Of a stretch of 64,000 bases of DNA, positions 40,629 through 42,790 are shown one piece after another. Position numbers and translations under genes: made by a program. The notes beneath the pieces are model-generated. The model made no database searches, was not told the DNA's origin, and saw only the letters and a list, made by a program, of their open reading frames with translations. Source of the stretch: Thermodesulfobacteriota bacterium (lineage in GTDB: Bacteria > Desulfobacterota > Desulfobulbia > Desulfobulbales > SURF-16); NCBI GenBank assembly GCA_039714595.1, contig JBDLJA010000009.1:189-64188 (forward strand), written 5' to 3'. The first letter of the stretch is position 1, and each line of letters begins with the position of its first letter.

Positions 40629-40844
40629 TTATGAAGATGCCAGGGCGACATCCTCTGCCTGCAGCCCCTTGGGACTCTCAACAATATCAAATTCCACGGC
40701 CTGGCCCTCGTAAAGGGTACGATGTCCCTCTCCACGGATGGAGCGATAGTGGACAAATACATCGTCGCCGCTTTCAGGGATGATGAAACCAAAACCTTTT
40801 CTGTCGTTAAACCATTTAACTGTTCCTGTCTGCCTTTCTTCCAT
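40629..40844 (-). CDS. Cold-shock protein (CspA family)
   Basis: [15 protein letters not shown] (RNP1), DVFVHY (RNP2); AAGGAGG SD upstream of ATG at 40844. Confidence 0.97.
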
Positions 40845-40894
40845 AATTCCCTCCTTAAGTTTAATAAAATTTTGAGGCAGGTAACTTGACACTC

Positions 40895-42409
40895 TTAACT
40901 GTGGTTTCTCTTTCTCGCAGGCCGCCGCCCTCCCCGGGCCGGCCGTCTGCTTTTGGAACTTCGCTTGTCGCTCTGTTTGACTACCTTCACCTTGGGTGGG
41001 GCGGCCAGTAACTCTTCATCTGGGTAGGTGCAGTCCAGTTTTTCACCTAAAAACTCTTCTATGTCGGGAAGATAGAAGGAATCCTCCTCGCAGGCAAAAC
41101 TCACCGAGGTGCCAGAGGAACCGGCCCGGCCGGTGCGGCCGATACGGTGGACATAATCTTCCGGGTCAAAGGGCAGGTTGAAGTTGACCACATGGCTGAT
41201 GCCGTCAATATGGATACCGCGGCCAGCCACATCGGTGGCCACCAGGACCTGGATCTTGCCGCTCTTGAAGTTCTCCAGGGTGGTGATCCGTTTGCGTTGC
41301 TCAACATCTCCGGAGAGCAGGGCGCATTTGATCTTATGGGCCTTGAGCATATCGGTGAGGCGGCGGGTATCCACCTTGCGGTTGCAGAAGACGATGACCT
41401 TCTCCAGGTTCTGGGTGGTGATCAGGTTGTAGAGCAGGACATACTTTTCCTCACTGGTCACCATGTAAACCTTCTGATCCACCGTCTCGGTGGCCACCTG
41501 ATCCGGCTCAATCTCCACCTCTGCCGGCTTCTTGGTCCACTGGCTGGCCAGGTGGGTAACCTCGGGGGTCAGGGTGGCGCTGAAAAAGAGGGTCTGGCGC
41601 TTATCCTTGTTGGGCAGGGAGTAGACAATCTGCCGGACATCGGGGATGAATCCCATGTCAAGCATGCGGTCCGCCTCATCAATAACAAAGATCTCCACCT
41701 CTTTTAGGCTCACCACCTGTTTCCGCATGAAGTCCAGGAGGCGGCCGGGGGTGGCCACGACAATATCCACCTCATGCTGCAGCTGATCCTGTTGCAGCTG
41801 ATAATCCATGCCGCCATAGACACCGACGATGTTAATGGCGGTGTAGGCCGCAAGCTCTCTGGCGTCAGAGCAGATCTGCATGACCAGTTCCCGGGTGGGG
41901 GCGATTATCAGGCTGCGGGGGGCGGAGGACTTGGCCTCCGGTCGCGGGTTGTTCAGGAGATTGTTCAGGATGGTGATCAGAAAGGCGGCGGACTTGCCGG
42001 TTCCGGTCTGGGCCCGACCCGTGGCATCTGTGCCGGCCAGGGTGTGCTCAAGGATGCCGGCCTGGATGGGGGTGCAGTAACGGAATCCCAGGTCAGCGAT
42101 GGCGTGCATTACCCGGTCAGGGAGGTTGAAATCATGGAAGCGGGATTGCTCCTTGCTTGCCTCCACCTCAAACTGGTCAATCTGCCAGTCGCCATGTTGG
42201 CGAACAGGCTTGTCAGGGGTGGGGGCTGGGACCGGTCTGGACTTCTGACGGGGAGGTCTCTTCTTCTTCTCGACCTTGCGGGCAGGACGAGCAGGGCGGG
42301 AGGAAGAGACTTCCTTCATGACCACATCAAGACCGAATACGGGGCCAATCTTTATGTGGGATTTATTCTGGGAGGAAACAGGGGTAGCCTGTACAGCGTT
42401 ATCTTTCAT
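40895..42409 (-). CDS. DEAD-box ATP-dependent RNA helicase (RhlB/RhlE-like)
   Basis: Q motif [37 protein letters not shown] and HRIGRTGR. Exact start uncertain. Confidence 0.95.
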
Positions 42410-42549
42410 ACCACTAAAACTTTACGGGAAAATATTAACGAACTCTTGAGGAAGAAAAAACTGCTGGTCAAGGATGGGGAATCAACGTGGGAGGAAACCA
42501 AACCAAACTTAGACGGGAAAGTTTTTTGCTGCCACATCTTAACTAAGGG

Positions 42550-42628
42550 GTACCTTGTAACTCGGCTATCTAAACGAGAGACCCGTGGCTTTCCGTCCCT
42601 GCCTCGCAGCAGGTTTGGTTTTAAGTAC
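42550..42628 (-). ncRNA. GEMM-I (c-di-GMP-I class) riboswitch aptamer; A20 variant predicted to bind 3',3'-cGAMP
   Basis: RNA reads GUACUUAAAACCAAACCUGCU-GCGA-GGCAGGGACGGAAAGCCACGGGUCUCUCGUUUAGAUAGCCGAGUUACAAGGUAC. It has P1 GUACUU/AGGUAC, P2 with a GNRA loop, the GGACGGAAAGCC junction, and P3 closed by AGCCG. Confidence 0.9.
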
Positions 42629-42633
42629 GAGAT

Positions 42634-42662
42634 ACCTTACTGATTTGCGCAGGCGATGTCAA
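42634..42662 (-). promoter_or_regulatory. Sigma70 promoter driving the riboswitch leader
   Basis: TTGACA (42662-42657), 17-nt spacer, TAAGGT (42639-42634); the predicted start falls at the first nucleotides of P1. Confidence 0.75.
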
Positions 42663-42790
42663 AAAAAAGTTAATTCGGGGGGTAACAATTTGAAATTACA
42701 GGATAAACAGGTGCTTTGGTCTGTCAGGTGGGCAGGGGTGTTGTCAGGTTGCCACCGGACAACTGTGCTGGGGCAGAGGGCCGCCCTGGT

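Follow-up and report, generated by a model that had tools for sequence, protein, structure and literature searches.

What does a cyclic-dinucleotide riboswitch do at the head of an RNA helicase gene, and which dinucleotide does it read? The question is raised by a stretch of 64,000 nucleotides (nt) from a Thermodesulfobacteriota bacterium (contig JBDLJA010000009.1 of assembly GCA_039714595.1; hereafter the window), in which, on the minus strand, an aptamer of the GEMM-I class stands upstream of genes for a DEAD-box RNA helicase and a cold-shock protein (Csp, gene csp). An initial annotation had described this element as a cyclic GMP-AMP (cGAMP)-type riboswitch controlling the two genes. We consider it likely that a cyclic di-GMP (c-di-GMP)-I riboswitch heads the mRNA of an RhlB-like helicase and a CspA/E-like chaperone, that its ancestral form was a c-di-GMP ON switch with G at the position known as G20 in the Vibrio cholerae Vc2 aptamer, and that the copy in the window is derived from it.

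The RNA upstream of the helicase is a genuine c-di-GMP-I (GEMM-I) aptamer. A window-wide scan of Rfam with cmscan returned a single match, to RF01051 (c-di-GMP-I), at 42553-42629 on the minus strand; it spans the whole model (positions 1-87 of 87) with 51.6 bits (E 3.5e-7) against a gathering score of 35 bits, and a whole-genome search against RF01051 recovered the same aptamer with an E value of 3.6e-9. The initial annotation had proposed this very scan, and the complete aptamer that it had drawn at 42628-42550 is borne out by the full-model match. The minimum-energy fold of an 86-nt transcript is exactly the aptamer structure (-20.4 kcal/mol). Across five orthologs the aptamer pairing is retained in 95% of cells, compared with 32-46% in a control with slid partners, and two pairs in P1a are compensatory, both sides having changed. 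The features of RF01051 are present, namely a GNRA loop on P1a, the GACGNAAAG core with A47 and the equivalent of C92 of Vc2, taken as the first C after GUUA (our own count along Vc2 reproduced G20 and A47 and was off by one at C92). The exception is position 20, where model position 11 aligns to A42619 instead of G, just as had been noticed at the outset; A20 variants are nevertheless counted inside RF01051.

Is the aptamer tied to the helicase, or is their proximity particular to one genome? The window genome (G000) is a metagenome-assembled genome (MAG) of 2.76 Mb, 97.6% complete, and all genomes compared with it are likewise MAGs; going by the public names given to homologous proteins, its family belongs with Desulfurivibrionaceae/Desulfobulbaceae MAGs. 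When helicase genes and GEMM-I copies were sought in 40 relatives, the riboswitch was found directly upstream of the helicase only in the genus of the window genome (g1, 2/2 genomes, the other being G001) and in a sister genus (g4, 8/8), against 0/30 genomes of nine other genera. With four distinct metagenome contigs this gives 14 orthologous leaders, of which the 12 from the eight g4 genomes and the four contigs are referred to as g4-type. The survey of helicase leaders in relatives that had been suggested with the initial annotation therefore finds the linkage conserved, in 10/10 g1 and g4 genomes and four metagenome leaders. A covariance model made from five promoter-plus-aptamer sequences and run on 40 genomes of the family scored the helicase leaders at 93-142 bits (64 in G014, owing to an insertion) and all other GEMM-I copies at 71 bits or less, and a pattern scan of metagenomes added one helicase leader and two unrelated GEMM-I copies. 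In all riboswitch-bearing loci open to checking, csp comes directly 3' of the helicase and in the same orientation; of about 35 helicase loci without the riboswitch, none has this arrangement.

In a tree of the helicases, g1, g4 and a third genus, g5, fall into one clade with support 100/98. No GEMM-I match was obtained in any of the three g5 genomes (G005, G015, G023), and g5 looks to have lost all its c-di-GMP-I riboswitches. The simplest history is that the module of UP-like T-run, TTGACA-17-TAAGGT promoter, aptamer, helicase and csp would have been assembled once in a common ancestor, then kept in the two Desulfurivibrionaceae-type genera g1 and g4 and later lost in g5. In G014 (L066/L140) an insertion of ~200 nt sits in the P2 loop of the orthologous aptamer, between GGGTCTTATGAAGATAAGG and CATCAGATAGCCGAG; the core, P1 and terminator are kept, and the Rfam score falls to 38.5 bits.

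The promoter that the initial annotation had placed immediately before the aptamer, TTGACA-17-TAAGGT, is confirmed by direct reading and by conservation in the orthologs. A T-run with TTGACA is present in 11/14 leaders (TTGACT in two; TTATCA in G022/G042) at constant spacing to the aptamer, variants of the -10 element (TAAGGT, TAAGAT, TAATGT, TAAAGT, TACTGT) occur at the matching position, and in most of the 13 other leaders the -35/-10 pair and the aptamer are as far apart as in the window. This promoter is absent from the output of a simple consensus scan because TAAGGT fits TATAAT at 3/6 positions only; the fixed spacing in most leaders supports a promoter here better than a consensus scanner does. 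Transcription would then start at about 42630, 1-4 nt ahead of P1.

Downstream of the aptamer the helicase, csp and a terminator hairpin were all found where they had originally been reported. The helicase has both expected Pfam domains (PF00270, 4e-47; PF00271, 2e-33). Among all helicase models of NCBIfam the RhlB model NF002340 ranks first, at 550.7 bits just below its cut-off of 564, and homologs of the protein bear the name RhlB in public sources. The public gene call gives 474 amino acids (aa) and starts at an internal Met, 42319, rather than at ATG 42409; G001 and g4 conserve the 30 residues encoded from ATG 42409 onwards (…G[PT][IV]FGL…), and the longer form is likelier for that reason. 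The csp product is a single cold-shock domain (PF00313, 3e-27, 94.6 bits) that fits the CspA family; its best NCBIfam match is CspE NF049933, with 101 bits under a cut-off of 120. The csp gene starts 50 nt past the helicase stop, with a GGAGG ribosome-binding site, and the short gap together with the lack of a terminator between the two genes in the window suggests that they are co-transcribed; in relatives the gap is about 90-370 nt. Elsewhere in the window genome there are two further DEAD-box and two further csp paralogs.

How such an aptamer could act on the helicase gene is best seen in the sister genus. All 12 g4-type leaders have an intrinsic terminator whose 5' arm, CCGAGUUACC, overlaps the 3' strand of the aptamer, being made up of the P2 3' strand, the C92 region and the beginning of the P1 3' strand; a U-run comes after the 3' arm, GGUA(G/A)CCCGG. 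Folding of ten g4-type leaders gave terminator stems of -11 to -15 kcal/mol with U7-U8. The L190/L191 contigs, outside these ten, have by sequence the same stem with U5, and the stem of G044 is compensated differently. The terminator lies only 60-70 nt ahead of the helicase ATG. The aptamer cannot form together with the terminator, so a bound ligand should keep termination from occurring, and on sequence grounds the g4 riboswitch is a predicted transcriptional ON switch. The ancestral form, with G20, would have been a sensor of c-di-GMP: the ligand-bound aptamer would hold CCGAGUUACC, the terminator would be blocked and RNA polymerase would enter the helicase gene.

The two g1 leaders differ from this arrangement. 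Neither a terminator scan nor folding found an intrinsic terminator in the window leader, which has no terminator 5' arm overlapping the aptamer 3' strand, and in G001 no more than a residual hairpin is left (-5.1 kcal/mol, U5). Among 5.8 billion proteins no additional g1 member was closer than 71% identity; since no closer g1 relatives were found, the g1 expression platform has to be read from two sequences. Both halves of the ligand-binding junction have a complement further down the window leader, in a candidate anti-aptamer: CUUUCCCGUC (42521-42512) is complementary to the core GACGGAAAG, and GGUUUGGUUU (42504-42495) to AAACCAAACC (42621-42612), which contains A20. Once 145 nt have been transcribed, a three-way anti-aptamer alternative becomes the minimum-energy fold (-36.5 versus -20.4 kcal/mol for the aptamer alone), and of 1000 dinucleotide shuffles, 985-990 give a weaker duplex than the anti-aptamer. 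The counterpart in G001 is GCUUUCGUCC...GGUUUG, for which the joint shuffle test is weak (102 of 1000). Both g1 leaders also have a spacer of ~100 nt with a C/G ratio of 1.5-2.4 per 60 nt, which is compatible with Rho loading, a role that we can only infer. In the window copy, on this model, the terminator would have been lost, leaving the long-range anti-aptamer (42521-42495) and the C-rich, G-poor spacer, and regulation, if any, would proceed by competition between aptamer and anti-aptamer on the leader, for example through Rho access or mRNA stability.

Three other arrangements of the window leader were considered and rejected. Long-range pairings across the whole leader, such as that of the P1 5' strand with the AUG region, were dropped as they are not conserved in G001. 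A long-range terminator, in which CUGCUGCGAGG would pair with CCUUGACCAGCAG ahead of U6, must open the stable P1a hairpin and is not conserved; in a helix of an A-run with a U-run (AAAAAACU with AGUUUUUU), the U-run sits within the stem. As separate observations, the leader and the start of the coding sequence share direct repeats on the minus strand (CUUUCCCGUCUAAGUUUGG at 42521-42503 and UUUUCCCGUAAAGUUUUAG at 42437-42419), an exact 11-mer, GTTTCCTCCCA, occurs twice on the same strand (42498-42488 and 42379-42369), and both copies of UUUCCCGU are able to pair with the aptamer core.

Several observations on the leader weigh against our explanation of the window copy. Besides the missing terminator, the anti-aptamer has only moderate statistics (p of about 0.01-0.015 for the window leader and about 0.1 in the joint test on G001), the fold of the whole leader is no more stable than that of shuffled sequences (z = +0.56), and a weak promoter-like site, TTGACC-18-AAGAGT at 42471, lies within the leader. 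A translational switch was also modelled and rejected, the predicted accessibility of the start codon being unchanged whether the aptamer was enforced or left free (0.38 vs 0.36). The same leader would suit a decaying relic, in which the aptamer still folds but, with the terminator gone, the conserved promoter drives helicase and csp constitutively, and G20A arose by drift as a neutral or mildly deleterious change. The terminator fades from the g4-type leaders, all of which have it, through G001, where it is weak, to the window, which has none, and this gradation is in keeping with such a decay, as are the unimproved leader folding and the indifferent start site; moreover, the window genome retains 2-3 GEMM-I copies compared with up to 24 in relatives, and the related g5 has none left. 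Yet the aptamer keeps its 51.6 bits and has lost none of P1, GNRA loop, core or C92. The complementarity of the anti-aptamer, for which G001 has a counterpart, is better than that of 98.5% of shuffles, and a C-over-G spacer of about 100 nt persists in both g1 leaders. We regard decay as unlikely. We infer both the existence and the direction of regulation in the window genome, and the original statement that the riboswitch controls helicase and csp holds in part: an aptamer with its own promoter in the leader and a conserved, specific linkage stand, whereas the terminator of the sister genus is missing and control itself is presumed.

We then come to the ligand. Position 20 is G in 11/14 leaders, including that of G001 in the same genus, and A in only three, those of the window genome and of G022 and G042, two sister genomes that branch within g4. 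Since G is found in the majority, G001 among them, and A in two separate places, G20 is the ancestral state and A20 arose twice. G20 is also seen in the other two GEMM-I matches of the window genome, which stand ahead of genes for a PEP-CTERM protein and a secreted repeat protein, both of kinds that are typical c-di-GMP targets. In G001 (L062/L127) the 3' side of the aptamer reads GAGUUAUGAAG: G20 is kept and U stands at the C92 equivalent, so that the two g1 species have each changed a different ligand-reading base.

The cGAMP-type label had implied a Hypr GGDEF enzyme, with Ser at the specificity position, elsewhere in the genome. The window genome has 12 GGDEF-domain matches, eight of them with an intact GG[DE]EF or GSDEF motif. 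The column that defines Hypr enzymes corresponds to PleD D344 and GacA Ser348 (PMC8835794, PMC6456294). When all 12 matches were aligned, none had Ser or Thr in this column; it is Asp in all intact-motif domains, the exceptions being Asn in a HAMP-GGDDF paralog and one degenerate domain. Hypr Ser or Thr was likewise not found in G001 (about 28/34 domains read) or G022 (20 checked, two of them C-terminal fragments), and in all three genomes the domains read have Asp, apart from a single degenerate paralog in each, which has Asn. A search for SMODS-type synthases gave no match in the window genome, and a DncV-type model, which had no positive control, found nothing there. The paralog with Asn is a transmembrane (TM)-HAMP-GGDDF protein in a 490-aa frame at C1:95653-95922, outside the window, with an ortholog in G001 (L187). 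Its Asn (GYSRGN) stands where canonical cyclases have Asp and Hypr enzymes Ser, and its architecture is the one described for Geobacter GSU1937.

What A20 may mean for binding can be judged from Vc2. The wild type binds c-di-GMP with a picomolar dissociation constant (Kd) and cGAMP with one of 10 µM; in the G20A mutant the two values are 53 nM and 120 nM, and beyond Geobacter the A20 variants found in nature likewise bind both ligands (PMC6140456). The window copy stands to its G20 orthologs as Vc2 G20A stands to Vc2, with the difference that the Kds of the mutant come from experiments in vitro whereas the window RNA is known from its sequence; like that mutant and the natural bispecific A20 variants of Clostridium beijerinckii (Cbe 1-2), it is a single G-to-A change on an aptamer of c-di-GMP type. 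By analogy this argues for a bispecific rather than a cGAMP-selective aptamer. Most economically, A20 would represent relaxed specificity and lowered c-di-GMP affinity, without the creation of a cGAMP-only sensor, in a cell where the only evident cyclic dinucleotide is c-di-GMP. The physiological ligand is presumably still c-di-GMP because the genome has 12 GGDEF-domain matches and no recognisable cGAMP synthase. Two further points belong with those that count against us: A20 is the residue that permits cGAMP binding, and a cGAMP synthase might escape notice in MAGs of 93-98% completeness, the search with the DncV-like model moreover having had no positive control.

The label of the initial annotation, by which the element would be a cGAMP-selective GEMM-Ib riboswitch with 3',3'-cGAMP from a Hypr GGDEF enzyme setting the levels of helicase and Csp, is one that the evidence does not support and that we consider improbable. 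The window copy does share with the Geobacter GEMM-Ib riboswitches Gs1761 and Gm0970 the fold, the A at the G20 equivalent and a deltaproteobacterial (Desulfobacterota) host, and the A14 of Geobacter GEMM-Ib pairs with the adenine of cGAMP (PMC6140456). The double origin of A20 and the U at the C92 equivalent of G001 could moreover reflect selection for an A-containing ligand, and one HAMP-GGDDF protein has Asn instead of Asp at the base-reading position. In Geobacter, though, A20 is a conserved trait of many riboswitches and species, found alongside the Hypr GGDEF GacA (Ser348), whereas here it occurs in 3/14 orthologs, no Hypr residue, SMODS match or other CD-NTase was found in the genomes and domains described above, and the remaining GEMM-I copies of the genome have G20. 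Of the three GEMM-Ib traits open to a test by sequence, the window copy shows A20 itself, while neither conservation of A20 nor a cognate synthase was found. A20 by itself, besides, makes the aptamer bispecific and not cGAMP-selective (PMC6140456).

A more far-reaching idea is that position 20 and the C92 equivalent have been repeatedly retuned (G20A twice, C-to-U in G001) by a second purine cyclic dinucleotide, such as cGAMP from a GSU1937-like HAMP-GGDDF enzyme with Asn, and that species couple the operon to different dinucleotides. We regard this as a long shot; if true, it would mean a non-Hypr route to cGAMP and a direct second-messenger link to global RNA remodelling. Least probable of all is that the helicase is transcribed mainly from a promoter within its leader (TTGACC at 42471-42466, 18 nt, AAGAGT), the aptamer transcript being a separate short RNA or an attenuated by-product, since, for all that the site matches at 8 of 12 positions and the leader is unusually long (about 220 nt), its -10 is poor with the first T missing, it is not conserved in G001 or g4, the g4 terminator 60-70 nt before the ATG leaves no space for a conserved promoter, and most of the 14 leaders have the upstream promoter at a conserved position.

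The c-di-GMP riboswitch that we favour combines familiar and unfamiliar traits. It resembles Vc2 and RF01051 in its P1/P1a/P2 architecture, GNRA tetraloop, core with intercalating A and C92 equivalent, and its g4 copies have a terminator-based expression platform as in classical GEMM-I; unlike Vc2, the window copy has A at position 20 and no recognisable terminator or hairpin sequestering the Shine-Dalgarno sequence. Known GEMM-I targets are surface, motility, pilus, cytochrome and signalling genes, whereas an RNA helicase and a cold-shock protein lie downstream in the window genome and g4. The cGAMP regulon of Geobacter comprises cytochromes, pili and polysaccharide genes (PMC6456294), and the regulon papers name cytochrome, pilin, polysaccharide and transpeptidase genes with no mention of a helicase or cold-shock gene. 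Full-text searches of the literature available to us found no paper in which an operon of a DEAD-box helicase or csp is linked with a c-di-GMP riboswitch, in agreement with the initial annotation, which had not recognised the regulon as described. The novelty is the gene association; the riboswitch class itself is already known.

A long structured leader ahead of an RNA helicase or cold-shock gene is also a trait of E. coli deaD/csdA and cspA, and we know of no small-molecule aptamer in leaders of these types. Expression of deaD is reported to be under autoregulation, by way of mRNA stability and of Rho-dependent termination within the leader (bioRxiv 10.1101/2020.04.19.049098), and the likeness of the C-over-G spacer of the window leader to the Rho-dependent leader of deaD is a compositional hint only.

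What makes the locus worth attention is that GEMM-I with its own promoter has become fixed to an RhlB-like helicase and a Csp chaperone across two genera, thereby linking a biofilm second messenger with proteins that remodel RNA. For the sulfur-cycling Desulfobacterota concerned, c-di-GMP would tune RNA unwinding and chaperoning, and possibly mRNA decay or translation in the cold or in stationary phase. In E. coli, c-di-GMP is coupled to the degradosome at the protein level, through PNPase; the module described here would give an RNA-level route to a degradosome-type helicase. The 14 orthologs amount to a natural experiment, with G or A at position 20, a terminator present or absent and one insertion of 200 nt, and as a series they would be a compact system in which to follow the drift of specificity, affinity and expression platforms. 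The locus should thus be of moderate interest to specialists in second messengers and RNA metabolism. Its features are collected in Table 1.

Table 1. Features of the riboswitch-helicase-csp unit, in window coordinates.
Feature	Position	Strand	Basis or remark
Upstream T-rich tract and -35 element TTGACA (42662-42657)	42657..42670	-	Read from sequence; conserved in orthologs
-10 element TAAGGT, 17-nt spacer after -35	42634..42639	-	Read from sequence; conserved position
GEMM-I (c-di-GMP-I) aptamer, including P1	42628-42550 (RF01051 match begins 42629)	-	Rfam, minimum-energy fold and pair conservation
P1 stem, GUACUU with AAGGUAC	42628-42623 with 42556-42550 (paired strand 42555-42550)	-	
A at Vc2 G20 equivalent, reader of ligand alpha base	42619	-	Aligned to model position 11
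P1a hairpin with GCGA tetraloop (GNRA)	42613-42598	-	
Core GACGGAAAG	42597-42589	-	Intact
P2	42592-42559	-	
C at Vc2 C92 equivalent, partner of beta guanine	42557	-	Intact
Candidate anti-aptamer	42521-42495	-	Complementarity to both halves of ligand-binding junction, fold energy, shuffles
C-rich, G-poor leader spacer, possible Rho-loading region	42430..42530	-	Composition
RhlB-like DEAD-box RNA helicase, 504 aa, basic N-terminal extension of ~85 aa	42409-40895	-	PF00270 and PF00271
CspA/CspE-like cold-shock protein, 71 aa	40844-40629	-	PF00313
Intrinsic terminator closing the unit, 16-bp hairpin and U-run	40570-40533	-	Listed on the plus strand by the terminator scan; the palindrome reads ...GGUAAUGCCUUUUUGUC on the minus strand

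Beyond csp, the minus strand of the window encodes a 207-aa ABC ATPase and a membrane protein of the UPF0014 kind (40530-38500), and two metagenome loci, L190 and L193, show the same succession of helicase, csp, ABC ATPase and UPF0014. Ahead of the riboswitch promoter, at 42982-42791 on the minus strand, lies an open reading frame of 63 aa that has no Pfam or NCBIfam match and is conserved in G001 (…RRLHLSRSGPDYIKKQVFELDEATL…).

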